Of a stretch of 64,000 nucleotides of DNA, positions 8,242 to 59,562 are shown piece after piece. Numbering within the stretch: position 1 is the first letter of the stretch; every line of letters starts with the position of its first letter. The position numbers and the translations under genes are program-made. This stretch comes from a virus. Taxonomy: Duplodnaviria > Caudoviricetes. The notes beneath the pieces were generated by a model. It was given only the letters and a program-made list of their open reading frames with translations. It was not told the DNA's origin and ran no database searches. Location of the stretch: the IMG/VR virus record IMGVR_UViG_3300038345_000076, positions 32,001 to 96,000 of that record; one strand, 5' to 3'.

Positions 8242-8253
8242 AGTGTCAATGAT

Positions 8254-8403: not shown

Positions 8404-8469
8404 AATGTTTGAATTTTATTGGTTAGTTAGTACCCACAATGTTTGTTATTACATTATGAGTTAGAGAGA

Positions 8470-8685: not shown

Positions 8686-8750
8686 AAATCTTATTTTTAA
8701 TTTGTTAGTAGTCCTGCGGCAGTTGTCGGACTGCTTGCAGGTAGAAGAGT

Positions 8751-11006: not shown

Positions 11007-11077
11007 GTGAATTGAATTTTATAAATTAGACAATAGGCAGTAAACACGATGCTTGGTCGTGCTTACCGATAGCGAGT

Positions 11078-40039: not shown

Positions 40040-43000
40040 ATGGCATTAGACCCATTGAAGTTTCAGGTTGCCATCCAAGATGATGCGACGAGTCAGTTAA
40101 GTAGTATAGAGGCTGCTTTGAATAGCCTGAAAGACAAGACCATCAGCGTAAAAGTTGAAGGTCTTAGTGATTTACAGAATCTTTTGTCTGCCTTGCAGCA
40201 TCAGCAGGTCAGTAACCTTGGCAAAGATGTAGGCAATGCCATTAACGAGGCATCGAGGAACTTGCAGAAAGAGGCGCAAGATGCTGTAAGGACTTCTCTT
40301 GGAAACTTGGCACAAGACCTTGCTTCCATTAAGACAGCGATTCAGAATGACAACTTTACGGCATTCTCAAATCGCATCCAGACTTGTGCAGAGAAGGTGA
40401 ACTTGCTGGATGAAGCGTTTAAGAAGTTTAAAGTTACCATCGGCGAGAATGAGGAACTGAAGAACCTTCTTACGGGTTTGGGAGCCGCCATCAGGGAAGT
40501 TTCATCTGCAATGTCTGCGATGAACTCCGTGAGGAATAGTGGTGGCGCAAAGGCACAGAAAGAAGAACTGAAACAGCAGGAAGAAGGACTTATAAAGGTA
40601 ACCAATGCTATAGGTCGTGTCCGTGACGCAGCATCGGGTGATGGTGGAGCATCATCCGGCAGTGTTGCTTTTATGGAAAGCATCAACAAGGTCGGTGAGC
40701 GGAATATCCAGACGTTAATAAAAGAGCAGGGTCATATTGAACGTCTGATAGCCATTGCAAAGAAGAGTATCGACTTCGGCGAGGGTCATCCCGTCCTAGG
40801 TATGGGACGTTTGCGTGGCGACCAGATGCAGAATTTACAGAATCTGGAGCAGTTGAAGAACGTCATCAAAGAGATACTTTTTGCTGCCAACCAAGGCGAC
40901 CAAACCGCTATTCGTTTCCTGAACACATTAGGTTCGTTGAAGACCATATCCTTTGGAAAGGACTTAATGGGTAATAACATAACGCTACTTGGTGGTCACT
41001 TCGATCAACTGACTCACAGCGTGACAGGTACGGCTTCGGCTATGCGTCAGTTGAACAAGGATATGCGTCTTGACTTCAACAAGGCTGCAAACAAGGAGAA
41101 ACTTGCAGCAGAAGCAGAGGCGGTAAAGAAACTTGCCGCATCCTATAAGTCTATGCAGCAAGAGTCCAACGCTATGCGTTCGCAGTCGGAATCGGCTCTT
41201 GCATCCCGCATAAGGATGTTGCGGGAACAATCGTCAGACTTACAAAAACTTCTTTCCGTTGGCAAAATCGGATTGGGTGAAGGTCAGTATAATTCAGTAA
41301 GGGATGCACTACGTGAGATAAGAAAAGAGTTACAGCAGATAGAGACTATCACGCAGCGAGGCGGCAACTCTACAGGTCTGTTGCGTTCATTGTCAGTCGG
41401 TCGTGATTACAGTGGTGTTATCGCGTCGGGTCGAGCCGTTGCTGATATGCGTAACAAGCAGGCACAAGAAACGAATCTTGCATCACGCGCTGTATCACAA
41501 CTGACGATGGAAGAGCAGAGGTTGGCGCAGGCGTTAAACCAGGCTACCAACAGCGCAAGAGGTCAGAGTCAGGTATTGAGCGACCTTAAATCTTTGGCTA
41601 CTCAGTACCTTGGTGTTTGGGGTGGTCAACAGTTTTTGAACAACATCATTCAGATTGGTGGTCAGTTGGAAATGCAACGCTTATCAATCGGTGCGATCTT
41701 AGGTGACGCTGCACAGGCGAATGATTTGTTTGAGAAGATAAAAGGTCTGGCCATCCAGTCACCTTTCGGTGTTGTAGAACTTGACCAGATGACCAAACAA
41801 CTTACCGCCTACGGATTTGAGTACAACGAACTGTTTGATATGACCAAACGCCTTGCGGATATTTCCGCTGCTACAGGCACAGGTGTTGACCGCCTTGCCT
41901 TAGCCTTGGGTCATGTAAGAAGTGAGGCAGCGTTATCCGGCTACACTTTGCGTCAGTTCAGTATGGCGAACATACCTCTTGCCCAGAAACTATCCGAAAG
42001 GCTCTCTGAGATAGAACACAGATTTGTTTCGATTGCTGATGTCAGAAAGCGTGTACGAAGCAAAGAAATCGGTTATGAAGATGTTGTTGCTGTTCTGAAG
42101 GAAATGACAGATGAAGGCGGTATGTTCTATCGCGCTCAAGAAACCATGTCACAGAGTGTAAAAGCAAGGTTCAAGAACCTGAAAGACTCTATGGATATAA
42201 TGTATGGCGAAATGGCAGAAAGTAAAGTCGGTGATGGACTGAAAGAGGTGGCCATTACCCTTACAAATCTGACAAGGAACTGGGAGGAACTTGCAGCCGC
42301 AATAGCCACTGTAACAGCATTGTATGGTGGTAAAAAAATGATAGCGTTCCTTAATGCAAATGCCATAAACGCATATTCAAGCAGTATTACACGGCTTGGC
42401 ATGAATCTTGGTTCTCTTACTGCTACAGAGTTGAGGGAACTCGCATATTCTGGTCAGCTTTCTAAACAAAGACTATTAGAAGCTGTTGCGACAGGTCAGG
42501 TTAGTGTTGAGGATGCCAAACTTGCAGCAGCTAAATGGGGGTTGAATAATGCCCAGCTTGCCCAGGTTGCATCTGGTCAGCGAACAATAGCATCATTGAC
42601 CGCTAATTCGATAGCCACAAGCAAATATTCTGTGGCACAATTAAGAGCAATAGCAACAACACGTCAGTTCGCATTAGGCTCAAAAGGTCTTGCCGTAGCC
42701 ATGAATGTCGTTGCTACAAATGCTAAAAAAGCAAGATCAGCCCTTCTTGGTCTCCTGAAAGCCGCTTGGCCTGTAGCACTTATTACTGCTGGTGTAGAGG
42801 CATGGATGCACTATAGAAAACAGAGTGAGCAGGCAGCAGAGGCAGCAGAAAACGCTTTTACTCGCGGAACAGAAAGTGTCAGGAATCTTAGGGATGCGCT
42901 TCAAAGTCTTCCTAAATACGAAATTGTCAACGGTACGGCAAACCTTGACGATGGTGCTTTGCGTAATGGGATCAAAAATGCCGTAAATGAACTGAAGAAC

Positions 43001-46000
43001 TATCACGTATTGGCAAACGACCTTATTGCCAAAGTGAATATGACCGATAGCAACGGTAAACCGATCATGTCACTTGCAGAGCAATATAACTATCTGAGAA
43101 GTCAGGTTGAATTAGCAGAGCAGGCCATGGAAGAGTTTCAGAGGACATCTTCTGCGCAAGAATCTGCTTTAAACTCTACAGGTGGTATAGGTAATGACAA
43201 TGCCCTTGAAGATATAAACGACTATTTTTCTTCAAGGAAGGCTTTTATCGAGAAAACAAACGAGTTTGTAGAAAAATACAAGAATCAGGCTAAAGTTGCC
43301 ATTGATGCTGCAAGGGATGAGGATGAAGCCTTCAGAAAACAGACAGAGGGCATGGCTAATTACGCAGAAATGCTAAGAATCCTTGTTACAGAAACAGACT
43401 CACTTGGCAATAAGATGGATTTCTCGAAGGGCTTTAATGTATTCTGGGGTATGCCTAATATGCAATCAACAGACTTTAGGAGCCTTTGGAGTGGTGTTGG
43501 TGGTCAGTTTAATGAGGCAAAAAAGGAACTTGACAACTGGGCGACAGGTTTCCGTGCTGCAATGGAAGGTAGTTTTGGCTATGACTTTTCCCATCTGACA
43601 GAAGTCCAGTTAGAGAATATCCGCAGACATATATGGGATTTTTCCAACTCTCCAGAATTGAGCAAACTTGACGAAGAGACGAGGAAATGGATTCGTGATT
43701 ATCTTGGAAGAAAGTGGAATATAACTTTTTCAACTAATGCCGAAACCGTTCTTAAAGATTTTGACGAAATGCAGAATCATATAGAGAAACTTGTTGGTAA
43801 AAAATGGGTTATCAAACTGAAGTTGCAGTCTGTCGGTTCTTTTGAAGAGTTGTATGACACCCTTGACAAAGATGTTAAAGAAGCAAAAGAAACCATCAAA
43901 AAACTTGGTACGTCTTTTACAAATGAAAGAAAAAAACAGTTAGAGAGTAACGTCATAGATGATACACAACTATCAGGAAAAGAAAAAGAGTATAGAGACG
44001 CTTACAAAAAACTTAGGAAAGCAAAGGCTGCATCAGACCAAGAAGGTTTCAAGTTGTCTTCATTAGAGGAAAAGGAATCTGGTAGAACTGGTAGAAGTGG
44101 CAGTAAGTCCGAAGACAAGGATGCGCGTCGCCTGCGTGAGATCGTGAAACTTTACAAGGATGCCTACGACTGGTACGGGAAGTACGAGAAGCAGGTGGGA
44201 GAGGGTAGTGCTTTGGCAAAAGTCAAAGAGCAGTTTGAGCCTCTGTTCAAACAATTTGAAGAGCAGTTCAAGCAGAAACTATCCCTTGACTCGATACCTC
44301 TCTATAAGGAGAATCTTGTATCGCTTCTTGACGAGGCACAGAAACTTTACGAGTCGCCCAAGCATAAGAACTCGTACATGGTGGAAGCCATCAAGACAAT
44401 CCGTGATGCCATCAATAACGTGGACTATGAAGAGGCGCAGCGCAAGATGGACGAATATGCAAGCAAGGTACAGATAGAACTCGACGGTCTTACCCGTGCG
44501 TGGGACATGTTTAATAATGTACGTGAGGCTACTGGCAATATTGACCTTGCCGTACAGTTGAGCGGTGCGGACTACCAGGCAGGACAGACACGTAACCTTG
44601 CCGATTCTCTGAAGAAGAAGATTGAGCAAGATTTTGCCTCTGCCAATGCCGTAGCCATACCGTTTGACATCAATATGTCTGACAAAGATATTGAGAATAA
44701 CATCAAGAATGCAATTCCGAAGGAAAGTGAGGAACGTATCAAGGGTATCGTTGAGGAATACAAGAAATGGCGTGACTTGCAGCGTGAGGTGTTTAACGAT
44801 GCCATCAACAACTATGCAAAGATTCTCGGCTCACTGGTTGATCATAAGTCTCAGATAGAGAAGATTGAAGACGAGTACAAAAAGGAGGTTGAACTCCTAA
44901 AAATACTTTTGGATTCTGGTAAAATCACTCAGGAGCAGTATGACAAGGGAGTAGGTATTGCCAGAGGTAATGCCGACTCTAAGGAATGGCAGGCTTCCAC
45001 ATCATATATAAATCTGATGAATAATTCCCTGTCAATGACCCGCTCTGAGATAGAGGCAGCCGCCAATATGCAGCGTGACTATCTGAACAGGGAGTTGGAA
45101 CGCGGTGCTATTGATGCGCAGAAATACGTTGAGGAAATGTCAAAACTCCAGAATCTTGAAAGGGAGTGGAGCGACAAAGGTTTCCTTGGTCTTCGTGGTG
45201 GTGTCGGTGCTTTTCTCAGTGGTGGTAATGATGGGCTACTGAACTATTATCAGACCCGTGCTAAGAAAGCGAGAACTGATTATGCAAATGCCGATAATAA
45301 GAACAGCAAGGATGCAAAAGAGAAACTAAAAGAAGCAAAGCATTATGAGGGGTTGTATAGTTCTCTTGTGAAATTAACTGATGGTGCTAAAAAGGTATTT
45401 ACGGCTTTTCAGACTTTGCAGGCTGGGATAGACCTTGTAGCAAACTTGTTTGACTCTCTTGGAATGAAAGGGGCGGCAACATTCATGAGTGATGTTAGTG
45501 GCGTTCTTGGAAGTGGCTTACAGGGGGCATCAGCATTGTCAGCCCTTGGTCCTTGGGGAATGGCTGCAGGTGCTGGACTTGGACTGCTTGGAGGTTTGTT
45601 TGGTTTACACGACAAAGTCTTGCAGCGTGAGATTGAAAGGCTCCGTGAGGACGTGCAGAAGATTGAGAACAATACAGACTTGATAGTTCAAGCCCGTGAG
45701 CGTACCCTTGGCTATGACACAGGAGATTTGCGTCGCAGTTATGCGCAGCAGTACGCTCCCAATGAAGCAAGACGTCAGAAAATTCTTGCATCAGACGATT
45801 GGTTTAATAAATTTTTAGCAAACACCGCTTGGGGGCAGGGTTTTAACTCCGTTGCTCAGAATGCCATGTACGAATACTATCAAAGGAATAGTGCTGGCAC
45901 AGGTTATCAGCAGCAGTTGGCGAATCTGAAAGCAGAGCGTGAAGACTATATGAGAATGTACGATGCAGAGAACGACAAGAAAGACAGTTCTGGTGAGGCA

Positions 46001-46759
46001 TTGGAGGAATACCGAAAGAAGATTGCTGAGATTGATGATCAGATACTCTATTTCACGGAGGATTTGGCAAAAGAGCTATGGGGTATTGACCTAAAAGGAT
46101 GGGCAAATCAGATTAGCGATTCTTTATGGACTGCTTTTGAGAACGGCGAGGATGCAATCAAGGCTTTCCACGAAACCGCTAAGGATATTATATCTGACGT
46201 TGCGAAACGCATGATGAATATACACCTAATTGAGCCTGTCATGACAAAGTTGGAAGAGGCATTGTTTGGCAAGGTTGGTGCAAATGGAGAACGAATTGGT
46301 GGCGGTGCATATAATATGCAGACAGGTAAGTTTAATGAGAGAGAGACTTTGGAAATTCTTGGTCAATTCTTCGGAGAGGGTGGAGAGTTTGCAAAAGTGA
46401 TAGGTTCCGCTGAGAGTTTCTACGAAATGGCGAAGAAGGTTACAGGCATAGATTTTGGTTCAGATAGTGGCGGTTCTACAAGCAGTACAATCAAGGGTGT
46501 TACAGAGCAAACCGCCGACCTATTGGCAAGTTATGTCAATGCCATCCGTGCAGACGTTTCTGTTATCCAAGCCATGATAGCGCAATACTTCCCGCTGTAC
46601 TATCAAGCATTGACTTCCGGCAACGAAAGGTTGAGGGGGATAGAAAATAATACCGCGGCTATCATGCGGAGTAACGAAGCGATAGAAAAGAGCAATCAGG
46701 CTATCCTCGACAGAATTGACGGACTTAGGAACAATACATGGAGAGTTCCAATGGCGTAA
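40040..46759 (+). CDS. Tape measure protein
   Basis: 2239 aa, Ala/Gln-rich coiled coil; SPFGVVEL...LADISAATG tape-measure domain. Confidence 0.92.
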   Translation: MALDPLKFQVAIQDDATSQLSSIEAALNSLKDKTISVKVEGLSDLQNLLSALQHQQVSNLGKDVGNAINEASRNLQKEAQDAVRTSLGNLAQDLASIKTAIQNDNFTAFSNRIQTCAEKVNLLDEAFKKFKVTIGENEELKNLLTGLGAAIREVSSAMSAMNSVRNSGGAKAQKEELKQQEEGLIKVTNAIGRVRDAASGDGGASSGSVAFMESINKVGERNIQTLIKEQGHIERLIAIAKKSIDFGEGHPVLGMGRLRGDQMQNLQNLEQLKNVIKEILFAANQGDQTAIRFLNTLGSLKTISFGKDLMGNNITLLGGHFDQLTHSVTGTASAMRQLNKDMRLDFNKAANKEKLAAEAEAVKKLAASYKSMQQESNAMRSQSESALASRIRMLREQSSDLQKLLSVGKIGLGEGQYNSVRDALREIRKELQQIETITQRGGNSTGLLRSLSVGRDYSGVIASGRAVADMRNKQAQETNLASRAVSQLTMEEQRLAQALNQATNSARGQSQVLSDLKSLATQYLGVWGGQQFLNNIIQIGGQLEMQRLSIGAILGDAAQANDLFEKIKGLAIQSPFGVVELDQMTKQLTAYGFEYNELFDMTKRLADISAATGTGVDRLALALGHVRSEAALSGYTLRQFSMANIPLAQKLSERLSEIEHRFVSIADVRKRVRSKEIGYEDVVAVLKEMTDEGGMFYRAQETMSQSVKARFKNLKDSMDIMYGEMAESKVGDGLKEVAITLTNLTRNWEELAAAIATVTALYGGKKMIAFLNANAINAYSSSITRLGMNLGSLTATELRELAYSGQLSKQRLLEAVATGQVSVEDAKLAAAKWGLNNAQLAQVASGQRTIASLTANSIATSKYSVAQLRAIATTRQFALGSKGLAVAMNVVATNAKKARSALLGLLKAAWPVALITAGVEAWMHYRKQSEQAAEAAENAFTRGTESVRNLRDALQSLPKYEIVNGTANLDDGALRNGIKNAVNELKNYHVLANDLIAKVNMTDSNGKPIMSLAEQYNYLRSQVELAEQAMEEFQRTSSAQESALNSTGGIGNDNALEDINDYFSSRKAFIEKTNEFVEKYKNQAKVAIDAARDEDEAFRKQTEGMANYAEMLRILVTETDSLGNKMDFSKGFNVFWGMPNMQSTDFRSLWSGVGGQFNEAKKELDNWATGFRAAMEGSFGYDFSHLTEVQLENIRRHIWDFSNSPELSKLDEETRKWIRDYLGRKWNITFSTNAETVLKDFDEMQNHIEKLVGKKWVIKLKLQSVGSFEELYDTLDKDVKEAKETIKKLGTSFTNERKKQLESNVIDDTQLSGKEKEYRDAYKKLRKAKAASDQEGFKLSSLEEKESGRTGRSGSKSEDKDARRLREIVKLYKDAYDWYGKYEKQVGEGSALAKVKEQFEPLFKQFEEQFKQKLSLDSIPLYKENLVSLLDEAQKLYESPKHKNSYMVEAIKTIRDAINNVDYEEAQRKMDEYASKVQIELDGLTRAWDMFNNVREATGNIDLAVQLSGADYQAGQTRNLADSLKKKIEQDFASANAVAIPFDINMSDKDIENNIKNAIPKESEERIKGIVEEYKKWRDLQREVFNDAINNYAKILGSLVDHKSQIEKIEDEYKKEVELLKILLDSGKITQEQYDKGVGIARGNADSKEWQASTSYINLMNNSLSMTRSEIEAAANMQRDYLNRELERGAIDAQKYVEEMSKLQNLEREWSDKGFLGLRGGVGAFLSGGNDGLLNYYQTRAKKARTDYANADNKNSKDAKEKLKEAKHYEGLYSSLVKLTDGAKKVFTAFQTLQAGIDLVANLFDSLGMKGAATFMSDVSGVLGSGLQGASALSALGPWGMAAGAGLGLLGGLFGLHDKVLQREIERLREDVQKIENNTDLIVQARERTLGYDTGDLRRSYAQQYAPNEARRQKILASDDWFNKFLANTAWGQGFNSVAQNAMYEYYQRNSAGTGYQQQLANLKAEREDYMRMYDAENDKKDSSGEALEEYRKKIAEIDDQILYFTEDLAKELWGIDLKGWANQISDSLWTAFENGEDAIKAFHETAKDIISDVAKRMMNIHLIEPVMTKLEEALFGKVGANGERIGGGAYNMQTGKFNERETLEILGQFFGEGGEFAKVIGSAESFYEMAKKVTGIDFGSDSGGSTSSTIKGVTEQTADLLASYVNAIRADVSVIQAMIAQYFPLYYQALTSGNERLRGIENNTAAIMRSNEAIEKSNQAILDRIDGLRNNTWRVPMA

Positions 46760-48522: not shown

Positions 48523-51500
48523 ATGAGCGGTTGGACGATATACAGCAAACAGGGAACACCCAAATACAAGGTTGAAAATCTGGAGTTCCGTGACATATGG
48601 ATGGGCGAGGAGTTCGTGACGGTAAGTATCGTCTCCCCCACCCCGATAGAGCTTCAAATAGGCGACTATCTGACGTACAGGGGAGCGACATATACCATCT
48701 ATTCGCTTCCTGCCGCTTTGAAACAGGCAAGGAGCAGCAGTTACGGCGAGGCTTTCAAGTACGATAACGTGAAGCTGTCTGCGCGTAGCACGGAGCTTAC
48801 GGACATCCGATTCCTTGATATTGTTCTCGGAGACAACAACCTTCATTACACGTCGCTTCCCACGTTCTCCGTCTATTGCGAGACCGTTGACGACTTGGTT
48901 GACCGCTTGCAGGCCAACACTGACAGGAACGCTATACAGTGGTTTTTCATCACACCAAACCATTCGAGGACGATGCAGCGATACACTGGTGCTGCTGCTG
49001 TCACGGCGGATGCGCTATGGCATCAGTATTACGATGATGCGGACGATTTGTTTGAGGGCAACACGGAAATAAACGTCTCCGTTGACAAGAAAAGCCTCTG
49101 GGAAGGTCTTGCCTTCATCAAGAACAACTTCGGACTAAACTTCATAACCCGTGACAGGTCATGTATCATCGGTGCTCCTGGTGTTATCGCAAACCATATC
49201 TTCCAGTACGGGAAGGGAAACGGTCTGTATCAGATAGAGCGTGTTGCAGATCAAGACCAGCAGATCGTTACGAAGCTCTTTGCCTATGGCAGTGACAAGA
49301 ACCTTCCATTACGCTACTATGCCACCATCGGAGACGACATGCCGAACAACATGGCTGTCAATGTCCTCATGCTGCCAGGGTTTCCTCAGTATGCACTGAA
49401 CCAGTTGTGCCGTACCACATACTATACCGACGGTACGGGCAAAAGGCATACGAAGGTGCAGATACGCAAGACACCTTCCGCAGGCTATTCCGACATTATG
49501 GATATACTCGGCGAGTACACTATCGGCTTTTCTGATAACAAGCTGCGTCCGTATATCACGTCAGGCAATGTAGGTACTCTCGGAGTGAAAGAGGGAGACA
49601 TCCACTTCACGGAAGAGAACGACGACAATGGCTTGAAGGAGGTGTACCCATCCATCGAGGGCATGACGGCAGGAGACGCAGGTGTAAGCGGTCTTCCTGC
49701 CGACGAGCGTCTTGACGAAATAAAGGCTTGTGATGTCATCGACGACAACGGTGTCTTTGAAGAGGGTGCAGAGATACCTAACTTCAACATATACCTGAAG
49801 CCTCTCGGCTTTGACTTGAAGCAGGCTTACGATGCCAACGGAGGTACGATGGTGATACACCTCAACGACGGCTACTGCGGAGGACGCGACTTCTCCGTAA
49901 AGAGTGTCGAATGGGAGGAGGCGAACAGCAGGTGGAAACTAAACGTAGAGCGTCATCACGACGAATCCCTTGACTTGTACTTTCCCTACTCCTGGGGCAA
50001 GTCCACTGGCGGCTCGTCCTCTGCCAACGAAGCGTATCAGATACGCACTGGAGACCATTTCGTCTTGACAGAGATAGAGATAAGCGATACGTCGTATATA
50101 TGGGCTGCGAGCGTCAAGGCGTTGCGCAAGGCTATCACATGGCTTCTTAACAACGACTACACGCGCTTCACTTATCTCCCGAAGGTTGACGAGATATTCA
50201 TGGCACGTCAGCACGACTCATCTACGCCAGGGACTTCCCTGCATGACACATTGAAGGCTGGAGACGTTATGAACTTCGAGGACAGTGACCTGGATATCGC
50301 AGGTAATGTGTTTATTGATACCCTTACGATCAAGGAAAACGGCAACAACGGCATACCCACATACGACGTAGTGTTACGCAACGACAAGCAGGTAGGCACG
50401 ATGCAGCGAATACAGAACCAGTTGAACTCGCTTTCCTCGTTTGTCTCAGGAGGCGGTGGAGGTCTGAGCATAGCGCAGATACGTCAGTTGATCCAGACAT
50501 ACGGTGCCGACTTGTTTCTCTCCAAACTAAACGACGATACGGCACAGGGGACACTGACTCTGATGAAAAGACTTGTAGTTGGGTTACAAGCAACGTTTAA
50601 CAAAGGGTTTGAATCCAAAGACTATTCAAAACTTGCAGAAGGTGCCGACTTCGGAGATTTTGTTCAAGGGCTTGTAGGAGGTGACGGTGCAAGGATTGAC
50701 AAGAATGGTAACATGGAGGCGACAAGCCTCTTTCTTCGTTCTGAACTCATAGCACCGAAGCTGACATACAACCATGTAGATGTCCGTGTAGGTGATGAAT
50801 GGCAGACAAACGGAGGAGGTGAGATAGCCTATGTTGACGGGTTCTTTACAGACCCAGAGGATAATATAGAAGGCGGTTATATCCATCTGCGTTTACAAGA
50901 AGATGACGAAGGAAATATAGTAGAGTTCGGAACGCTTAAACTGAACGATTTCTGTAAGGGAATCTTTCATAACATGGATGGCGGTTATAACGACACGCAG
51001 ACCACAGATGACGGTAAGGGAGGCAGGACATTCTCAGGCTTCTTTACTTCGTTCTTCAATATCATAGAGGTTAGCGGAGACCATTACGAGACTCTGAAAT
51101 ACAAGTTACGTCCTACCATCACTTCTGGAGGGTTTGACTATTGGATGCGTGACGATGGTACGGCAAGTGGTATGCGTGGAGGTTTCCATCCGTGCGCACA
51201 TATGACCTTTGCACAGTACTCAAACCCACAAGACACGACACGTCAGAATTGTCAGTACCGCACTACGACATATATGCGTATGCTGGCTAACATGACTGGC
51301 TGGGATGAAGGACTTGCCAACGTAGCATTCCAGGTAGGCAACACACCTTTGATAGCAAGTGCCTTTGGAAGTACAGACCCAAGCGGAAGGGCTGCTAATG
51401 CTGGTCGCTACTCCATGTGGATTAACGGCGACATCTTCTTTTCTGGCACACTGAACCGTGTGGACGCATGGGGCAGGGATATAACAGACTACCCAGACCA

Positions 51501-54500
51501 AGGGGATTATGCTCCAACTACTACATACCGTCTCAATGACCTTGTGCACTATAATGGTATCGTTTGGCGGTGCATAAAGGCTTCTGTTACAGGAGAAGCA
51601 CCAGGAAGCAATACGCAAGACCCGTCATGGATTAAATGGATTTATGCCGAAAGCGTAGAACCGATGGGGCATTGGAACAGCACAAGAAGACATTATCCTG
51701 CCAAAGCTATCGTAAACCTGTTCAATGGTGTGTATATGGCTAAGACGGAGACAAACAATGCTCCTCTTGGACTTCTAATGACAAAAGACGGGGAATATAT
51801 TACTACCGATGACGGGGGATATATCATTGTCGATGATACGATTGACTCAGATTGGGAGTTGCTTCTTGATACTGGAGATATAACCAATGGAGAGGATGGA
51901 GAGAATGCTGTTGTCATCAACCTCACAAACGATACTGATAGCGTTTTGACTGACGAGAAAGGAAACATCCCGTCTAGAACATCCTTTCCTACGACAACGG
52001 CAGAACTGTATGACGGACTGAATAAGGTAGTGCAAGGAGTAGTGTGGTCTATACAATCCACTACTGGCTGTACGGCATCCATTGATGCTACCACTGGAGA
52101 ATGTCAGGTACTTACGATGACTGCCGATAATGCCGAGGTCGTCATCATTGCTACTTACAAGCAGAAAACATACGGAAAGAAATTCACTTTCAAGAAACTC
52201 TTAGGCAAAGATAAACTGTGGCTTGATATGCCAGAGGTGGTGTATTACGACAACCCGACAGCAAAGAACATCTCACCAGTCAAATTAGTCATCAGGGCTT
52301 ATATTACATCCGCAACAAAAGGGACGGCACAGGCTATCTATGGAAGCATGAACTGTGGATATGTGAGGGTTGGCGGTTCCAACACAAACTACTATCATGG
52401 TGACGAGGTAGGAATAACATACGATTCTTTCACTAACGGACATCTTATCGTCAACCTCTACGATTCAAGCGGCAATATTCAGGACACAGAGGATATAAGG
52501 CTGTTACAAGAACCAACACAACTCGTTTCAGGAGGGAGGTGGACTTCTACTACTGAGGTAAAGATTAATCACTTCTACCGCTTCGGAGATTCCATATACC
52601 TTGCAAAGAAAGAGAGTGTAGGCATATCACCTGTAATGTCATTGCTTAAAGATTGTGATGGGAACTTCATTACTACCAGCGATGGCGGGTATATCATATT
52701 AGACGACAGAACAAACACAGAATACTACGACAAGTGGGTTACTGACGGCGATGCCGTTAATGCCGTGCGCATTGATCTCGACAACGAGAACGATACTATG
52801 CTGTATGACAATAACGGCAATCTGCTGTCAACTCCTTGCGTATCTAACGCTACACTCTATGAAGGAAACCAGAAGATAAGCAACGCTGTTTTCTCCATCA
52901 TTTCTACAGAAGGCTGTACGGCAGCTATCAACGGAAACAAGATAACCGTGTCTGCAATGTCACAGGAGACTGGCAGTGTCATGGTTGGATGCGTTTACAA
53001 AGGCACACAGTATATCGTCGTGATGAGTCTTACAAGAATCATCAATCAGGATAAGTTTGATATTGTATGCTCTCCGAACAGCGTGGCGTATAATTCCACC
53101 TCAGAGGAGGTACAGACAGGAGGTACTATCGTTGTAGAGGTATGGCGCACACCTGCCAGTGGCGGTGCTCGTGAGAAGGTGCAGAGCCTTGCTACGTATG
53201 GTCTTACGCTTTCCTGTTCTCCTTCTGGAATCATGGGTACTTATTCTGGTGGCAGTGCGACTATAACGGTAAACGCTTCCACTGCTGGAGGTAACGATAA
53301 CATCATCATCATTCTGACAAAAGACGGAAAGACTGTTGATGCCGAGGGCATTCCTATTGTAAAGGCGGAGGATGCCGTTACATACGAAATCGTTGTCTTT
53401 CCAGACGGCTTCAACCGTAACAATGACGGAACGTATAAAGACAGCACCCACACCATTACTTGCCGTGTGTTCAAGATTGCTGGGGAAACAAGAACGGAAC
53501 TCAACAACACAACGTTTGCATCAGAAGGTCTTTCCTTTGCACCGTTAGTCAATGACACACTTATATCCAACCCGTTCCAATGGAGTGGAACAGCTTTCTA
53601 CTGGCAGCTTCCTGTTGTCTATCCATCTGGCAGCAGCACGCTTGTTAAGAAGATAAGCGTACAGGTCAAGAAAAGCAATGCTGTCATCCTCTCTAAAGAC
53701 ATTACATTCTCTTTTGACGGAAAGGAGGGTTTGCAGGGATGTGCCACAAGAGTATCTGAATGGAACGGCGAGTCAGGCTATTACCGCAACGATGAAGGCA
53801 AAAACCTTCAATCTGGCGAGGTTGGCTATATTGACATCGTTGCAAGAGAATCAACGGAAACTCCAGACGGGTATTATTTCTACCTACTAATAGCAGGTTC
53901 TTATTCTGGTGACACGTATCACAGCACAACACCGCCTGAAAACGACACATCACACTGGCTTCAACTGTCTAATGTCGGTCCGCTATACACTTCCCTGCTT
54001 ATCGCCAAGAACGCTTTCATCAAGTTCGGTAGTGGCAATCAGTTCATTATCATTAATTCCTCAAACAACATCGAGGCAGGAATGAAGGGCGATGGAGACA
54101 TCCGTATATGGGCTGGAGGAAGCAATATCGGAACGGCAAACGACACAAATCTTGCCAACGCTCCTTATCGAGTAAAGAAAGATGGTTCATTTGTATCTTC
54201 AAAAGCCGATATTCAAGGGACAATAAGAGCGCAAACTTACTTCTATGACGTACAGACATTAGCACTTCCAAATTCAGACGGACAGTACGTCGGTACTATC
54301 CAAACAGGAAAACAGATAGTGTTTGTAAAGTCTCCTCGAAATCCAAACGGGCAAAACAATATCGTTTACCTGCCATACGCAAACACAAACAACGGTGCGG
54401 TAATAGATATATATTGCTATCCGAATCTGGGTGTATCGTCAAGCAATCAGGGTATTCTCATAGAACCACAGCCTGTTTCTGGGCAAACGATTACTGACCC

Positions 54501-54615
54501 ATATACAGGAGAAAGTCTTGATTATGTTGCACTGGAAATATCTCACAAGGCACGATTCTATTGCAATGGCAATACTTGGATATGGTTAGAGCGTAATATA
54601 AACACATCACAATAA
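48523..54615 (+). CDS. Large tail tip protein (Tal/hub-like N-terminus plus fibre)
   Basis: 2030 aa; FQYGKGNGLY...VTKLFAYGSDKNLP; FLSKLNDDTAQG; internal duplication of about 290 aa. Confidence 0.8.
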   Translation: MSGWTIYSKQGTPKYKVENLEFRDIWMGEEFVTVSIVSPTPIELQIGDYLTYRGATYTIYSLPAALKQARSSSYGEAFKYDNVKLSARSTELTDIRFLDIVLGDNNLHYTSLPTFSVYCETVDDLVDRLQANTDRNAIQWFFITPNHSRTMQRYTGAAAVTADALWHQYYDDADDLFEGNTEINVSVDKKSLWEGLAFIKNNFGLNFITRDRSCIIGAPGVIANHIFQYGKGNGLYQIERVADQDQQIVTKLFAYGSDKNLPLRYYATIGDDMPNNMAVNVLMLPGFPQYALNQLCRTTYYTDGTGKRHTKVQIRKTPSAGYSDIMDILGEYTIGFSDNKLRPYITSGNVGTLGVKEGDIHFTEENDDNGLKEVYPSIEGMTAGDAGVSGLPADERLDEIKACDVIDDNGVFEEGAEIPNFNIYLKPLGFDLKQAYDANGGTMVIHLNDGYCGGRDFSVKSVEWEEANSRWKLNVERHHDESLDLYFPYSWGKSTGGSSSANEAYQIRTGDHFVLTEIEISDTSYIWAASVKALRKAITWLLNNDYTRFTYLPKVDEIFMARQHDSSTPGTSLHDTLKAGDVMNFEDSDLDIAGNVFIDTLTIKENGNNGIPTYDVVLRNDKQVGTMQRIQNQLNSLSSFVSGGGGGLSIAQIRQLIQTYGADLFLSKLNDDTAQGTLTLMKRLVVGLQATFNKGFESKDYSKLAEGADFGDFVQGLVGGDGARIDKNGNMEATSLFLRSELIAPKLTYNHVDVRVGDEWQTNGGGEIAYVDGFFTDPEDNIEGGYIHLRLQEDDEGNIVEFGTLKLNDFCKGIFHNMDGGYNDTQTTDDGKGGRTFSGFFTSFFNIIEVSGDHYETLKYKLRPTITSGGFDYWMRDDGTASGMRGGFHPCAHMTFAQYSNPQDTTRQNCQYRTTTYMRMLANMTGWDEGLANVAFQVGNTPLIASAFGSTDPSGRAANAGRYSMWINGDIFFSGTLNRVDAWGRDITDYPDQGDYAPTTTYRLNDLVHYNGIVWRCIKASVTGEAPGSNTQDPSWIKWIYAESVEPMGHWNSTRRHYPAKAIVNLFNGVYMAKTETNNAPLGLLMTKDGEYITTDDGGYIIVDDTIDSDWELLLDTGDITNGEDGENAVVINLTNDTDSVLTDEKGNIPSRTSFPTTTAELYDGLNKVVQGVVWSIQSTTGCTASIDATTGECQVLTMTADNAEVVIIATYKQKTYGKKFTFKKLLGKDKLWLDMPEVVYYDNPTAKNISPVKLVIRAYITSATKGTAQAIYGSMNCGYVRVGGSNTNYYHGDEVGITYDSFTNGHLIVNLYDSSGNIQDTEDIRLLQEPTQLVSGGRWTSTTEVKINHFYRFGDSIYLAKKESVGISPVMSLLKDCDGNFITTSDGGYIILDDRTNTEYYDKWVTDGDAVNAVRIDLDNENDTMLYDNNGNLLSTPCVSNATLYEGNQKISNAVFSIISTEGCTAAINGNKITVSAMSQETGSVMVGCVYKGTQYIVVMSLTRIINQDKFDIVCSPNSVAYNSTSEEVQTGGTIVVEVWRTPASGGAREKVQSLATYGLTLSCSPSGIMGTYSGGSATITVNASTAGGNDNIIIILTKDGKTVDAEGIPIVKAEDAVTYEIVVFPDGFNRNNDGTYKDSTHTITCRVFKIAGETRTELNNTTFASEGLSFAPLVNDTLISNPFQWSGTAFYWQLPVVYPSGSSTLVKKISVQVKKSNAVILSKDITFSFDGKEGLQGCATRVSEWNGESGYYRNDEGKNLQSGEVGYIDIVARESTETPDGYYFYLLIAGSYSGDTYHSTTPPENDTSHWLQLSNVGPLYTSLLIAKNAFIKFGSGNQFIIINSSNNIEAGMKGDGDIRIWAGGSNIGTANDTNLANAPYRVKKDGSFVSSKADIQGTIRAQTYFYDVQTLALPNSDGQYVGTIQTGKQIVFVKSPRNPNGQNNIVYLPYANTNNGAVIDIYCYPNLGVSSSNQGILIEPQPVSGQTITDPYTGESLDYVALEISHKARFYCNGNTWIWLERNINTSQ

Positions 54616-54641
54616 ATATTAATATTTAAAACATATAGATT

Positions 54642-55157
54642 ATGGATAAATTAGGAAAATTTTTACAGAGAGGTTTGGTGAATGCCTCACCGAGCAGATT
54701 CCTTATGGCAGACGTTAAGGAGAACGAAATGGCAAGTTCCTTGCCACAGAATGTAACGGCGGACTATGTTCGTGCCATAGGTAGTGATGGAAAGAGTTAT
54801 AGAATACCAAGAGCAGATTTCGCAAGCATCATCCGTAGCGAGTTAGGAACAATCTTAAATGGACTGACAAACCAGACCACCGTAACGAAGGTTCCAACGC
54901 TTAACGGATCCACTCTTGGAGCATCAGCTGTTGCAACTTTGGCATCAGTTCTGGGCGTAGAAATGCAAGTGTATGTCAACGATGGTTTCTCTCATGGTAT
55001 GCCTGGATATACGGGAATATTCGTTGGCTTCAACATGACCAATGAACGTGGTGGAGCAATATTCTTTGAAGCAGAAGGGGTGGGTGGAGGTTTCTTCACC
55101 AGTGCTACCGTTAATGGGCAGATTATACAATGGCATCATTTGGCATTTCAATCTTAA
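54642..55157 (+). CDS. Shufflon target gene: constant 103-aa N-terminus plus currently fused cassette 1
   Basis: CTGGGCG at 54951-54957 encodes LG at the constant/variable junction. Confidence 0.85.
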   Translation: MDKLGKFLQRGLVNASPSRFLMADVKENEMASSLPQNVTADYVRAIGSDGKSYRIPRADFASIIRSELGTILNGLTNQTTVTKVPTLNGSTLGASAVATLASVLGVEMQVYVNDGFSHGMPGYTGIFVGFNMTNERGGAIFFEAEGVGGGFFTSATVNGQIIQWHHLAFQS

Positions 55158-55184
55158 CAAAAAGGAGGTATAAGCCTCCCTTTT

Positions 55185-55445
55185 CTGGGCGTAAGAGGCA
55201 GAATTATATTTGAAGATAAGCAAATACAACAGAATGGTAGTTACACTACAGGTTCTCTTGCAGGAGGACTGTATGTGTTAGAATCAACAGTTGGAGGACA
55301 TAATATCGTATTTACGCTATATGCTTCAGGATTGCATGTTATTCAAGCAGATGCTGCACAGATTACAGTAACAGGCAGTATGAGTGCAGGTGTAACAGTT
55401 ACGAATAATGCTTCTGCAAGAAACTTTACGTTAAGGAAATTATAA
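55185..55445 (+). CDS. Silent shufflon cassette 2 (LGVRGRIIFEDK...NFTLRKL)
   Basis: Open frame from CTGGGCG with no start codon; not in the ORF track. Confidence 0.8.
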   Translation: MGVRGRIIFEDKQIQQNGSYTTGSLAGGLYVLESTVGGHNIVFTLYASGLHVIQADAAQITVTGSMSAGVTVTNNASARNFTLRKL

Positions 55446-55466
55446 AAGGAGGGTATTGCCATCCTT

Positions 55467-55715
55467 TTATATTGCTGTAAATGTACACTCTCTCCACCGT
55501 TGCCAAGTATTATTTGCATAAACATTATAAAAGAGTTTTCCGGAAGCTGTACCACTTGCATATTCAAGAGCAATGCGAATAGAATAAATCATAATACAAT
55601 ATCCAAAAGAACATGGTGTGTTATTATGAGTGGTAGAATTGAACCATTCACATTTTACTATATTTGTGGTTCCAAGCAAGTCTGTTACGATAGTATTGTT
55701 ATTGAATGCGCCCAG
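55467..55715 (-). CDS. Silent shufflon cassette 3 (LGAFNNNT...WQRWRECTFTAI)
   Basis: Open frame from an inverted site. Confidence 0.8.
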   Translation of the reverse strand: MGAFNNNTIVTDLLGTTNIVKCEWFNSTTHNNTPCSFGYCIMIYSIRIALEYASGTASGKLFYNVYANNTWQRWRECTFTAI

Positions 55716-55771
55716 CTCTTATTGTTATTGGTGGTTAACAAACAAGGGGTAGCTCTGCTACCCCCATTATG

Positions 55772-56017
55772 TTACCAGGGTACACTGTTGCCGAACAAGT
55801 ATTCCCATCCTGTTGTTATTACGGGTTTTTGGTCATAGGAATATCTAAAGGCTAACGTCCTATTAGAAGTGAACCTCTGAACAATCTGGCCACCTGAAGT
55901 TCTAATAACTTCTAAAATGTAGAATCCATGAGTATTATCCCATCCAACATAGTAACCTTCTTCTATTGTATGGTCTGGGTCACTTACAGAATAATGTTTT
56001 TTGAAAGTTACGCCCAG
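55772..56017 (-). CDS. Silent shufflon cassette 4 (LGVTFKKHY...GNSVPW)
   Basis: Open frame from an inverted site. Confidence 0.8.
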   Translation of the reverse strand: MGVTFKKHYSVSDPDHTIEEGYYVGWDNTHGFYILEVIRTSGGQIVQRFTSNRTLAFRYSYDQKPVITTGWEYLFGNSVPW

Positions 56018-56028
56018 AAAGAATAATT

Positions 56029-56280
56029 CTGGGCGTATGGCGTTTGGCTTCAAGAAGCTCTCAAGAAGGCGATATATCATCATGTGACGAGTGTGTTAAT
56101 GGATATATATACTTTATGACAGTTCAACATCCGTTAAGTAATGCACCTGAGCTTCCTTGTAATGTAATCACATTTAGAACGGATTCAATAGGCTTTCAAT
56201 TTGGATATGGCTATTGGACTGGAAAAATGTATACGCGTGGACTGAACGGTGGTACTTGGTCAAATTGGAAAGAGTTGTGA
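56029..56280 (+). CDS. Silent shufflon cassette 5 (LGVWRLAS...WSNWKEL)
   Basis: Open frame from a site. Confidence 0.8.
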   Translation: MGVWRLASRSSQEGDISSCDECVNGYIYFMTVQHPLSNAPELPCNVITFRTDSIGFQFGYGYWTGKMYTRGLNGGTWSNWKEL

Positions 56281-56311
56281 AATAATGGGACGGTTTAATG
56301 CCGTCCAATTT

Positions 56312-56668
56312 TCACCACTCCATAACCAGTACTCTAAAATATACAGAAAGACCTTCTCTTTTGGTTACAGTCAAACTTCCATCATTATTGAAGGAGAGGT
56401 CAGATTGTTTTATGGCATTTCCTTCATAAATTGTTCCTGCAACTGTTTTTCTACCAAGAACAAAGACGCTGGGTGTCGCTGTATTTTGAGATATAAACAA
56501 AATGCTACACCTGTCACCATCACTTCCTCCAAAGTAGGTATTTGGTATAGTAACACTTGTACCTGATGCTTGTTGTATTGAGAAGCATGAACGAGGATAT
56601 GAAAATACTTTTTCAGACATAATAGTACGAATACCATTAATCCCCTCATTATTTTCAATTTCGCCCAG
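56312..56668 (-). CDS. Silent shufflon cassette 6 (LGEIENNEG...VLVMEW)
   Basis: Open frame from an inverted site. Confidence 0.8.
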   Translation of the reverse strand: MGEIENNEGINGIRTIMSEKVFSYPRSCFSIQQASGTSVTIPNTYFGGSDGDRCSILFISQNTATPSVFVLGRKTVAGTIYEGNAIKQSDLSFNNDGSLTVTKREGLSVYFRVLVMEW

Positions 56669-56680
56669 ATGTAATTAATG

Positions 56681-56947
56681 CTGGGCGTGGTACGTTATAT
56701 TGGAGACATTAATTCATCTTCAAATATAGATGATTTGGTAAGTGGATGGTATAGAATAAGCACAACTACACCTCCTAATTGGTGGTTTAATAACTCAAGC
56801 ACAGATGGACTTGTTGAGGTTATCAAAACACACGCTAACTACAAAATGTTAAGATATACAAGTTTTACTAATGGAGACGTCTATGGACGCTGTTATTTAT
56901 GGACTTCATGGGGCGACTGGAAAAAGTTCACGGCTGGAACATTATAA
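56681..56947 (+). CDS. Silent shufflon cassette 7 (LGVVRYIG...WGDWKKFTAGTL)
   Basis: Open frame from a site. Confidence 0.8.
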   Translation: MGVVRYIGDINSSSNIDDLVSGWYRISTTTPPNWWFNNSSTDGLVEVIKTHANYKMLRYTSFTNGDVYGRCYLWTSWGDWKKFTAGTL

Positions 56948-56975
56948 ATAGTGGGAGGTTTTTTCCTCCCACTTA

Positions 56976-57257
56976 TTATGTTGCATACTCAACCACTGTT
57001 CCTGTGACTTTCCTCCACATGCCAAATCCATTATCCCAGCCTCTGAACCAAAAATCCGATGAACCCTTTGCACAATCAAATACGATTTGCTCTTTGTTTT
57101 GTAAAACATACAAGCAAAACGAATTAGTGAGACCTGTGGGACGATGAGAATGGTTTCGTGTTTGCACCCCAGCTAAAGTGTAATAGCAATGACCAATTTC
57201 GGTATAGTCATCAAAGTCTCCTCCATCACTCTGATAATGGCGCTGTATGCCGCCCAG
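56976..57257 (-). CDS. Silent shufflon cassette 8 (LGGIQRHY...FGMWRKV...)
   Basis: Open frame from an inverted site. Confidence 0.8.
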   Translation of the reverse strand: MGGIQRHYQSDGGDFDDYTEIGHCYYTLAGVQTRNHSHRPTGLTNSFCLYVLQNKEQIVFDCAKGSSDFWFRGWDNGFGMWRKVTGTVVEYAT

Positions 57258-57269
57258 CATTAATCATTC

Positions 57270-57611
57270 CTGGGCGTAGATAGGATTGTGTATACGAATG
57301 GTTCAAACAATCAATCTTTTTATATTGCTTCGTTTGGTAACTACTCGTCTGTCAGAATATTAGGATCGCATTCTAATGTAAACAGTGGTGCTATTGACTT
57401 CACTATATATGGCAATATGGGGGATTTTGTGGCAAAGGGTAATGCTGGACAGAATGGTTATGACATTAAAGTTTACAAAAAGGATTCAAAAATATATCTC
57501 TTTTTTCCTACCGGTATTTCTGTTAATGTTATACTCGTCGGCGGTCTTGGTAAACTAATACAGGAGGCTATACCAGAAGGCGCCACCCAGTTGACTGTTT
57601 CCCCTTATTAA
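57270..57611 (+). CDS. Silent shufflon cassette 9 (LGVDRIVYTNG...LTVSPY)
   Basis: Open frame from a site. Confidence 0.8.
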   Translation: MGVDRIVYTNGSNNQSFYIASFGNYSSVRILGSHSNVNSGAIDFTIYGNMGDFVAKGNAGQNGYDIKVYKKDSKIYLFFPTGISVNVILVGGLGKLIQEAIPEGATQLTVSPY

Positions 57612-57640
57612 CAATAAAGGATGGCTTGTAACCATCCTTT

Positions 57641-57856
57641 TTATATTTCCTTCCACGATGTATAAGAAGCACCTCCATAAACACTAATACGAGTATATAA
57701 GCCACCAATTACATCAGAAATCTTGGAAATAAAAAAATGACCCCAATAATAACTACCTTGCGCTTCAATCAGTAAACCAAAGTCAGCAGGCATCCCTTTA
57801 GAAATTCCATCTCCAGCATAAGATTGAGCTTTGAATTTCCCTCCTAAAACGCCCAG
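57641..57856 (-). CDS. Silent shufflon cassette 10 (LGVLGGKF...YTSWKEI)
   Basis: Open frame from an inverted site. Confidence 0.8.
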   Translation of the reverse strand: MGVLGGKFKAQSYAGDGISKGMPADFGLLIEAQGSYYWGHFFISKISDVIGGLYTRISVYGGASYTSWKEI

Positions 57857-57868
57857 CACTCTAAGACG

Positions 57869-58258
57869 TTAGGCTCCTTCGCTTGGTGTGGTATGGAGGC
57901 TGAATTTGCTTTTGACTACCCATGGTTCCCATTTTTCGTAGCGTGACTCGCGGCTACGGCAATAGCGAATGATTATGGCTTTTTCGTAGTTAAGGATTAA
58001 TAGTTCTTGCTTATTGTCTGTAGGGAAAAACATGACCAATCCTTTTCCTATTATAGTTGGTTCTCGATAATTACCTATTGTGGTAAGACAGGGTGCGTCC
58101 TTTACTAACTTTTCTAGTTCTTCCTCAGGAATAACCGAATTTCCTTCAGGGCACAATGTATTGATGTCTGTGCCATATGGTATATTTTTCTGTGACAACA
58201 TCGCCGCTTGCGCATGGAGTGCCTCTTTAAATTGCTTGTCTCTTTCTTCCTGTGTCAT
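57869..58258 (-). CDS. Hypothetical protein between the shufflon and the recombinase
   Basis: 129 aa; own TAACTTTG promoter near 58279-58286; C-terminal WEPW. Confidence 0.65.
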   Translation of the reverse strand: MTQEERDKQFKEALHAQAAMLSQKNIPYGTDINTLCPEGNSVIPEEELEKLVKDAPCLTTIGNYREPTIIGKGLVMFFPTDNKQELLILNYEKAIIIRYCRSRESRYEKWEPWVVKSKFSLHTTPSEGA

Positions 58259-58332
58259 AATCGTTTTTTAGTTTGCCGCAAAGTTAAGAAAAATCCTTGA
58301 AACACCTTTGTTTTATTCTGATTATTTATATT

Positions 58333-59562
58333 TTACCCCGGTTTTTCGGGCAATTTTTCATCCGATATTTCGTCTCCAGTATCACATGTTGCTACTTTAA
58401 AAGCCTTCTTGACATCGTTGGCAATCATAGTTTTGGCAATATGTGCATACCTTTGCGTCTGCTCTATCTTGGTATGGCCAGCCAATTTTGATACGGTCGT
58501 TATCGGCACTCCTTTTGCTATGAGTAGGGTGCAGAAGGTATGGCGCAGCGTATGGAAGGTGATATGTCTGGAGTCGGCTACCCCAATACGCTTGATCAGA
58601 TCCTTCAGAGTCCTGTTGGCAGAGGCGTTATTACCTATATGCGTCAGTCTTTCTATGCTGCCGCGCCGCTCGATCAACGCGAGTGCCTTTCCACCGAATA
58701 GAGAATATAGCGGTAACCTTACAACCACTCCAGATGACTTGCTTGTTTTCTTCGGCTGTATGATAAGCCAGGTCTTTCCATGCTCCTTCAGCAGCATGTC
58801 AGAGGTGAGGGTTGTCAGATCATGATATCGCAGTCCGGTATAGATGGCCATCAACGCACAGTCTCGGATTCTTGCCTCGCGTTTCTTTAATTTAAGATGC
58901 TCCAGCTTTCGCACCTCATCGAATGTCAACGACTCTTCTCTGCTCTTTATCTTAGGAATAGGGAAATGCAGGAACGGGTCATCGTCGACGCATATGAGCT
59001 TTCTGGCGATAGCCTCGTTGATGATACACCTTATGCCTTTTAGTCTGCCTGATATAGTGCTTTGTGACATCTTCTGGGATTTCTGCCAATCCACGAACCT
59101 GTTGAGCCAGTCTATATCTATCTCTTCTAATGTAAGGTCTTTGTGAAACCTGTCCACTATCTTGATAAGTGTGTTATAGGAATCCTTTGTGTGCTTTCCT
59201 CTTGAAGATGAATGTTCATTGATAGAAGTCACGAAATCACGGAATGTAGCAGAAGATGAAATATTATGTCTGACAGCGTTCTTAAGCATGGCAAGCGTGG
59301 GATTCTTTCCCCTCTGTATAAATCCGAACTCGATGCGTTGTATCTTGATTAACTCATCAAATATATACTGGTTGAGTTGCTTTGCAAGAGGATGATTGAC
59401 AATATAATGACCGTCCCACTGATACGGATATAGGTAAACTTTTGTTGAAAAGTATATTCTCTTTCCGTTAAGCAGGCACTCCACTTGCACAAGGCTTCTT
59501 CCGTCTAAGTTTAACTTCCCTTTTCTGTTGAATACAAGCCTGTATCTTACTTTATCAAACAT
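58333..59562 (-). CDS. Tyrosine recombinase (Bacteroidales integrase type), putative shufflon invertase
   Basis: Arm-binding N-domain, SAM-like domain, YTGLRY, HTLRH, LAGH and TQRY motifs; TATATTTG promoter at 59575-59582. Confidence 0.9.
   Translation of the reverse strand: MFDKVRYRLVFNRKGKLNLDGRSLVQVECLLNGKRIYFSTKVYLYPYQWDGHYIVNHPLAKQLNQYIFDELIKIQRIEFGFIQRGKNPTLAMLKNAVRHNISSSATFRDFVTSINEHSSSRGKHTKDSYNTLIKIVDRFHKDLTLEEIDIDWLNRFVDWQKSQKMSQSTISGRLKGIRCIINEAIARKLICVDDDPFLHFPIPKIKSREESLTFDEVRKLEHLKLKKREARIRDCALMAIYTGLRYHDLTTLTSDMLLKEHGKTWLIIQPKKTSKSSGVVVRLPLYSLFGGKALALIERRGSIERLTHIGNNASANRTLKDLIKRIGVADSRHITFHTLRHTFCTLLIAKGVPITTVSKLAGHTKIEQTQRYAHIAKTMIANDVKKAFKVATCDTGDEISDEKLPEKPG

Follow-up and report, generated by a model that had tools for sequence, protein, structure and literature searches.

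A probable shufflon for the last tail gene of a cattle-gut phage, with a tyrosine recombinase beside it

Sites and cassettes of the array

The DNA analysed here, called the window throughout, is a 64-kb stretch that corresponds to bases 32001-96000 of the 105,850-bp IMG/VR virus record IMGVR_UViG_3300038345_000076, which is rated complete by CheckV. The virus, from the cattle gut, is siphovirus-like with a genome of about 106 kb, and public runs holding the stretch are gut metagenomes of cattle, goat and sheep. Following the gene for a tail protein of 2030 amino acids (aa), the window carries a small gene with a 171-aa product (54642-55157), an array of short repeats that head open reading frames (ORFs), and a tyrosine recombinase gene. 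We propose that this locus is likely to be a multiple-inversion system (shufflon) acting on the last tail gene of the phage together with the adjacent recombinase, a reading that appears well supported by comparison with the sequences of relatives.

The heptamer CTGGGCG has 12 matches in the window, and ten of these fall within 54951-57856, five on the plus and five on the minus strand; dinucleotide shuffles gave a mean of 3.16 matches for the whole 64 kb, and none of 100 reached 12. The first of the ten copies forms codons 104-105 (Leu-Gly) of the small gene, and all ten open a frame in this Leu-Gly register. An earlier note, made from the same DNA, had described the Leu-Gly codons and ten copies in 2.9 kb divided equally between the strands, and our recount gave the same figures. 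It had also given the frames as 71-118 aa; they are indeed all open, but the range is 68-118 aa, because the expressed cassette is 68 aa long. The remaining architecture that it had sketched was likewise recovered: the cassettes lie mostly in convergent pairs with G+C hairpins between them, the array region containing 14 terminator-like sites against 3.3 in shuffles; back-to-back sites 11-12 bp apart, of the form CGCCCAG-N11/12-CTGGGCG, occur as three pairs at 56011/56029, 56662/56681 and 57251/57270; and several cassettes end in an aromatic-x-x-W motif, the (W/F/Y)xxW of the note. Across the wider family described below, WxxW is present near the C-terminus in 40 of 87 cassettes. Among themselves, the ten window cassettes share no BLAST-level similarity.

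The constant part of the tip gene comprises codons 1-103 (54642-54950, plus strand) and ends in ...ATLASV before the core. Site 1 (54951-54957) joins it to cassette 1, the expressed 68-aa C-terminus, which runs with its stop codon to 55157 (54951-55157, plus) and is followed by a hairpin at 55160-55184. The nine silent cassettes, each including its site, are cassette 2 (86 aa, 55185-55445, plus; site 2 at 55185-55191), with a stop nine codons upstream; cassette 3 (82 aa, 55467-55715, minus; site 3 at 55709-55715), with a stop one codon upstream; cassette 4 (81 aa, 55772-56017, minus; site 4 at 56011-56017), which has 26 open codons upstream; cassette 5 (83 aa, 56029-56280, plus; site 5 at 56029-56035); cassette 6 (118 aa, 56312-56668, minus; site 6 at 56662-56668); cassette 7 (88 aa, 56681-56947, plus; site 7 at 56681-56687); cassette 8 (93 aa, 56976-57257, minus; site 8 at 57251-57257); cassette 9 (113 aa, 57270-57611, plus; site 9 at 57270-57276); and cassette 10 (71 aa, 57641-57856, minus; site 10 at 57850-57856). 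Further hairpins lie at 55444-55468, 55745-55765, 56288-56306, 56950-56973 and 57616-57640. The order at the left end is nested, with site 1 (plus), cassette 1, site 2 (plus), cassettes 2 and 3, site 3 (minus), cassette 4 and site 4 (minus).

What lies directly upstream of each core bears on whether these frames are cassettes at all, as they might instead be a family of small independent genes, alike in an N-terminal Leu-Gly and equipped with starts of their own. In cassettes 7 and 8 an ATG, supplied by the spacer, does stand immediately 5' of the CTG, and the open codons preceding cassette 4 include ATGs. In eight of the ten frames, however, a stop codon occurs 1-9 codons upstream of the core, mostly with no start in between, and these eight cassettes thus lack a start of their own, while the upstream frame of cassette 1 is the constant part itself. 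Moreover, homologous cassettes are fused in frame to the constant part in relatives, and in a relative with 31 sites the spacers end in TTCT or TCTT and offer no ATG. We consider it highly improbable that the array is a row of independent genes, and read the frames as startless cassettes of a shufflon.

Rearranged junctions in related phages

The earlier note had pointed to rearranged junctions in related genomes as a way of checking the reading; such junctions exist, with their breakpoints precisely at the heptamer. When the 171-aa product was used as the query of a protein search, it returned four close homologues in which residues 1-105 are 91-94% identical, a similarity confined to the constant part and its joint, and in which four different C-termini follow ...ASVLG. 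Residues 68-105 are nearly invariant in 26 homologues. One of the four, P0003, carries as its expressed tip the counterpart of the window's silent cassette 7 (92% aa identity). The DNA of its contig (L002) aligns with 48579-54958 of the window and then jumps to 56681-56974, and the eight bases by which the two alignments overlap are the core. Similarly, two contigs from sibling assemblies of one study, L005 and L006, share 96.9% identity as far as the heptamer and are unrelated past it. A second clade has near-identical constant parts, with about 50% identity to the conserved block of the window, after which about 20 unrelated C-termini follow the same joint.

Joins between parts of the array that lie apart in the window are seen in other metagenomes. 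In X2, a cattle run from an independent sample, a contig joins 57849 to 55709, that is, cassette 10 with its core followed by the site-3 flank of the window. Two loose ends from this run carry cassette 6 followed by CGCCCAG-AATTATTCTTT-CTGGGCG, the window's 4/5 spacer reverse-complemented, and cassette 8 followed by CGCCCAG-CATTAATTACAT-CTGGGCG, the 6/7 spacer reverse-complemented; both inverted spacers lead to cassettes that the window does not have. In run X7, a unit of the cassette-2/3 type stands after position 57269, with 265 new bases leading up to the hairpin that terminates cassettes 2 and 3. These joins are the products expected from inversion and permutation of blocks between cores. 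The X2 and X7 contigs also end at sites, although repeats of only 7-26 bp are shorter than the word normally used in assembly; this is a hint that those samples may contain mixed arrangements.

The source run (X1) gave one colinear contig with no alternative junction, assembled contigs dropping minor variants, and run X4 gave no contigs; neither outcome speaks against switching. As the source sample yielded this single arrangement, all evidence of recombination comes from related phages and not from one population, and the rearrangements observed are all between related but non-identical phages (77-97% identity). It could be argued from this that the array serves as a cassette store in which exchange takes place on evolutionary time scales alone, through rare recombination at the joint, or that it is the remnant of a decayed system, with no programmed switching within a population. 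Such a history would sit poorly with a recombinase that is intact and ten frames that are all open, with 7 bp of identity, which is too short for homologous recombination, and with the precise inversion of spacers between cores in X2; the contigs that break at sites also hint at mixed populations, and the related BV01-like shufflon is described as active in read data in a 2026 preprint (PMC13596623). We regard a mere store as quite unlikely, and the sequence comparisons instead suggest that switching may be ongoing in the window's phage.

Some relatives show variations on the joint. In L006 (1045-3189), a 154-aa cassette follows the constant part at the heptamer, and the 1.8 kb downstream contain plus-strand genes but no other copy of CTGGGCG; this may be a fixed form without an array. 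In P0006 and P0019, two longer homologues of the tip protein (293 and 282 aa), the first cassette is followed by another joint-like motif inside the protein, ...AADLASLLGG..., which suggests two-tier or tandem cassettes. No match was found among GenBank phages by megablast of the locus or tblastn of the 171-aa protein, and no relative was confirmed in an IMG/VR peptide-pattern scan with the constant part or in a profile scan of prokaryote genomes.

The recombinase and the proposed switch

The recombinase gene (58333-59562, minus strand) lies 477 bp from the last site of the array and encodes 409 aa. In this protein, our candidate for the invertase, Arm-DNA-bind_5, Phage_int_SAM_5 and Phage_integrase all score above the Pfam cut-offs (PF00589 at 70.4 bits against 27.1), and alignment to XerD shows that the catalytic residues R245, K271/272, H337, R340, H363 and Y372 are all kept, in agreement with the earlier description of a complete enzyme at the far end of the array. 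An NCBIfam scan produced only sub-threshold Xer and integron-integrase matches and no named invertase family. The nearest annotated relatives are integrases of Bacteroides and Phocaeicola phages, and the label 'Bacteroidales' given to the enzyme in the earlier note draws on nothing other than these. The earlier statement that the system uses an integrase-type and not a serine enzyme fits the genome, as PF00239 (Resolvase) has no match in the whole 105,850 bp, whereas 12 of 14 control genomes match; a tyrosine invertase for a phage tip shufflon is not new, however, being predicted for the Rin system discussed below (PMC6109161).

Proximity to an array does not by itself make this enzyme the invertase. 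Recombination at CTGGGCG might be carried out by another enzyme, either a second tyrosine recombinase of the phage or a host protein, with the adjacent gene being a lysogeny integrase that was placed there for unrelated reasons. An architecture of arm-binding, SAM-like and catalytic domains is typical of integrases, and integrase is the label borne by the nearest annotated relatives; the homologue in the cultured Bacteroides phage BS-TP2 keeps the same position between tail and lysis genes; and the genome encodes two more tyrosine recombinases (window 3589-4590, minus, 333 aa; and G000:C1 about 7873-9045, minus, 390 aa), both about 23% identical to the array-adjacent enzyme, with possible roles in integration, dimer resolution or another switch. 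These two, however, have no linkage to an array, and recombinases of the present group adjoin arrays in ten other contigs in varied orientations and with varied neighbours (as in L003 and L026), while in BS-TP2 lysogeny could be the task of gp12, another and distant integrase. In a small tree, array-linked recombinases fall into three supported clades and other recombinases occupy long branches, with the deep forks unresolved. On balance, action by a different enzyme seems unlikely to us, and the 58333-59562 recombinase is the probable catalyst, although a role in lysogeny may still belong to it.

Tyrosine recombinases require identity over an overlap region of 6-8 bp. Since the breakpoints in relatives fall within the heptamer, we infer that the heptamer is this overlap region, and the asymmetry of the core would give the sites their direction. 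According to the mechanism that we propose, the constant part (103 residues), predicted to trimerise, would dock on the 2030-aa tail protein; it is followed by the Leu-Gly encoded by the asymmetric 7-bp core CTGGGCG and then by the expressed cassette. Nine further cores in both orientations each head a startless cassette of 71-118 aa with a hairpin at its end. Between oppositely oriented sites, the neighbouring tyrosine recombinase would exchange strands inside the core, and the intervening DNA would thereby be inverted, bringing another cassette in frame behind the constant part. In a block model that permits inversions between opposed cores only, a depth-limited search finds that cassettes 3, 4, 6, 8 and 10 reach the expression site in one inversion and cassettes 2, 5, 7 and 9 in two.

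The notion of a trimeric tip is supported by structure prediction. Modelled as a homotrimer, the 171-aa protein has an ipSAE of 0.75 against 0.00 for the best of three controls. Among proteins of solved structure, 20 of 30 same-chain pairs and 1 of 23 single chains reach this mark. The trimer runs agree in at least 74% of contacts with a partner pLDDT of at least 63, and the predicted contacts, which express model confidence and not measurement, lie in the constant part and the cassette alike. The tip protein has no Pfam, PHROG or NCBIfam match. A language-model search places its family next to unnamed viral and Bacteroidota clusters, and the nearest named Atlas clusters are fibre families (at 0.85, a lead only). 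Gene order, the trimer prediction and this weak lead together suggest that the cassettes may set receptor specificity.

Besides the ATGs of cassettes 7 and 8, the single arrangement in the source run, and the arm-binding domain and integrase kinship of the recombinase, some further observations weigh against the shufflon reading. When 67 family sites are compared, the heptamer alone is fixed; upstream, positions -7 to -1 show a weak A/T pattern, and hardly any conservation is left on the downstream (cassette) side. Beyond the 7-bp core, a recombinase would thus have little sequence to recognize. As sites 1 and 2 point in the same direction, deletion between them is formally possible. Finally, AlphaFold2 monomers of the window protein and of P0003 reach a pLDDT of only 52-53, and a Foldseek search of these models against the PDB returned no fold at E <= 0.001; the likeness to fibre knobs drawn in the earlier note is therefore conjectural.

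The position of the locus agrees with a tail function. Upstream of the tip gene, on the same strand, are genes for a major head protein, the tape measure (2239 aa, 40040-46759), a 189-aa protein and the 2030-aa tail protein (48523-54615, plus strand); the latter is taken from the ORF list and has a CBM_5_12 match as well as PHROG matches of unknown function. Downstream, a 129-aa orphan ORF separates the array from the recombinase, after which come a holin-like gene and an endolysin. With tail genes on one side and recombinase and lysis genes on the other, the switchable gene is the final gene of the tail module. The orphan ORF (57869-58258, minus strand), situated between array and recombinase, has its own ATG and a W-E-P-W near its C-terminus, and was considered as a cassette look-alike; BLAST against all cassettes gave no significant match, Pfam, NCBIfam and PHROG gave none either, and no homologue exists in any related locus. 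It is probably not part of the core system.

The array family and its relation to known systems

To place the window among related loci, an exact-DNA scan of IMG/VR was made with the 16-mer GCATCAGTTCTGGGCG, which encodes ...ASVLG, and retrieved 27 stretches. Among these and in one ENA contig (L003), true arrays of 2-12 sites with cassettes open in the same register were recognized (L010, L012, L014, L017, L018, L019, L026, L029 and L003). In a further stretch, L016, the array continues to 31 sites, which occupy 8.4 kb of a 71.6-kb phage contig in IMG/VR (locus L038, G001:C1:56371-64762). Each of the 31 sites opens a frame of 55-105 aa in the same register, identical spacers of 19-22 nt are repeated in both orientations, and a recombinase 38% identical to that of the window (G001:C1:54999-56150) lies about 220 bp from the last site. 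We know of no larger inversion repertoire. The earlier note had called the ten cassettes of the window an unusually large repertoire, which is true in comparison with published systems but not within the family, given the 31 sites of this relative. In total, the unit of array and group recombinase recurs in ten other phage contigs with 2-31 sites, and wherever there is enough flank a tyrosine recombinase 30-76% identical to the window's adjoins the last site. Orientation and neighbours vary: in L003 the recombinase is followed by head genes rather than lysis genes, and in L026 it lies upstream.

Some of the retrieved sequences call for separate remarks. L003, a distant relative with a 4-site array, has a 233-nt non-coding stretch between two sites (10871-11103) with a terminator-like hairpin and the T-loop-like GTTCGAATC, but ARAGORN found no tRNA in it. 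The IMG/VR sequence L032 is GC-rich and was set aside as a chance match. An exact scan of prokaryote genomes with the same 16-mer gave 120 matches, nearly all due to chance in GC-rich genomes, and only L092 proved real. This sequence (JAZRQP010000089.1, 2263 bp), binned to a metagenome-assembled genome of Faecalimonas (Firmicutes), has seven CTGGGCG sites after an ...ASVLG joint, and may be a piece of phage DNA binned wrongly or else an indication that the family is not confined to Bacteroidales hosts.

It is tempting to speculate, although we hold this only tentatively, that phage tip shufflons built on CTGGGCG arrays are a family spread widely through the viromes of gut and rumen, that one universal ...ASV-LG joint is shared across recombinases down to 30% identity and makes cassettes tradable between unrelated phages in addition to their shuffling within one, and that 31-cassette arrays are the largest programmed-inversion repertoires described for any gene. 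The surfaces of gut Bacteroidales hosts vary by phase variation, and if our reading is true, ten ready-made tips behind one joint, or 31 in the relative, would be a hedge of host range that needs no mutation. It would then also bear on the prediction of host range from metagenomes and explain why assemblies break at the locus. The locus may further serve as a compact natural scaffold for the study or swapping of receptor-binding tips, and BS-TP2, which is cultured and has a version with four cassettes, opens the idea to bench tests.

Inversion systems that exchange the C-termini of surface proteins are well known. The R64/IncI shufflon is driven by the tyrosine recombinase Rci and acts on pilV through seven sites, with a 7-bp core conserved on one side, and four segments. 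Like the window, it combines a tyrosine recombinase with multiple inversion and swaps the C-termini of a surface adhesin that sets partner specificity; unlike the window, it serves a plasmid pilus adhesin and not a phage tail, and its recombinase and site sequence are unrelated. Gin of Mu, Cin of P1 and Min of p15B are serine invertases whose inversions swap the C-termini of tail fibres and change host range, Min being multi-site. They resemble the window in what is swapped and differ in the class of enzyme, which is serine in their case and tyrosine here.

Closer in design is the Rin shufflon of Bifidobacterium prophages (PMC6109161, 2018), in which a phage-encoded, predicted tyrosine-family invertase is associated with five cassettes and the 11-bp rix site TTCCCTAACCC, and inversions were seen between prophage and virion genomes. 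As in the window, the invertase lies at one end and the constant N-terminal part of a receptor-binding protein at the other, with dissimilar C-terminal cassettes, headed by short asymmetric repeats, in between; the differences are the actinobacterial host, the 11-bp site and the number of cassettes.

The nearest counterparts are found in gut Bacteroidales phages, to which both the BV01-like phages and BS-TP2 belong. As described in the preprint (PMC13596623), BV01-like Phocaeicola phages have an active three-cassette tail-fibre shufflon with 6 variants, a flanking recombinase of unstated class, the motif TGGGAGAACT and activity reported at the level of reads, and part of the shufflon coincides with the distal end of a gene for a carbohydrate-binding tail fibre. 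In BS-TP2 (PQ571275.1), gp3 (annotated as 'integrase') is 36% identical to the window recombinase over 94% of its length (E 5e-66), the best match among annotated phages, and lies near the array-linked recombinases in the tree, within the limits of its unresolved deep forks. The gene stands between the last tail genes and the holin/endolysin, in the order seen in the window. We found beside it a previously unannotated 4-cassette array (L161:9725-10556 and L160:1-3000): CTGGAAGAACTGAT occurs at codon 17 of gp85, giving the joint ...ASV|LEEL in place of the ...ASV|LG of the window, and three inverted copies or near-copies of the core on the minus strand each open a startless frame of 91-139 aa, two of which end in WxxWK, the type of motif seen in window cassettes. 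CTGGGCG is absent from the BS-TP2 locus. In the linear record of this phage, the cut falls within the array, and the two ends have 141 bp in common.

The similarity of gp3, its gene position and the array lead us to regard the window system as a relative of the Bacteroidales phage shufflons. The BV01-like phages, likened here by description (PMC13596623), BS-TP2 and the window share in-frame C-terminal cassettes, short directional motifs and a recombinase alongside. They differ in the core, which is TGGGAGAACT in BV01, CTGGAAG(A/G)ACTG (CTGGAAGAACTG) in BS-TP2 and the 7-bp CTGGGCG in the window, and in repertoire, with three cassettes in BV01, four in BS-TP2, ten in the window and up to 31 in a relative. 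They differ also in the gene that is switched, which in the window is separate, encodes 171 aa and follows that of the 2030-aa tail protein, whereas in BV01 the shufflon involves the fibre gene itself. Compared with these shufflons, the window system thus uses a different core, its constant part is longer and belongs to a small gene of its own, and its repertoire is far greater. Our searches of the literature found no paper linking shufflons with rumen phages. A phage tip shufflon run by a tyrosine invertase is already known from Rin (PMC6109161), and what is new here is the size (ten cassettes in the window, 31 sites in one relative), together with a core of a minimal 7 bp and a family of such breadth.

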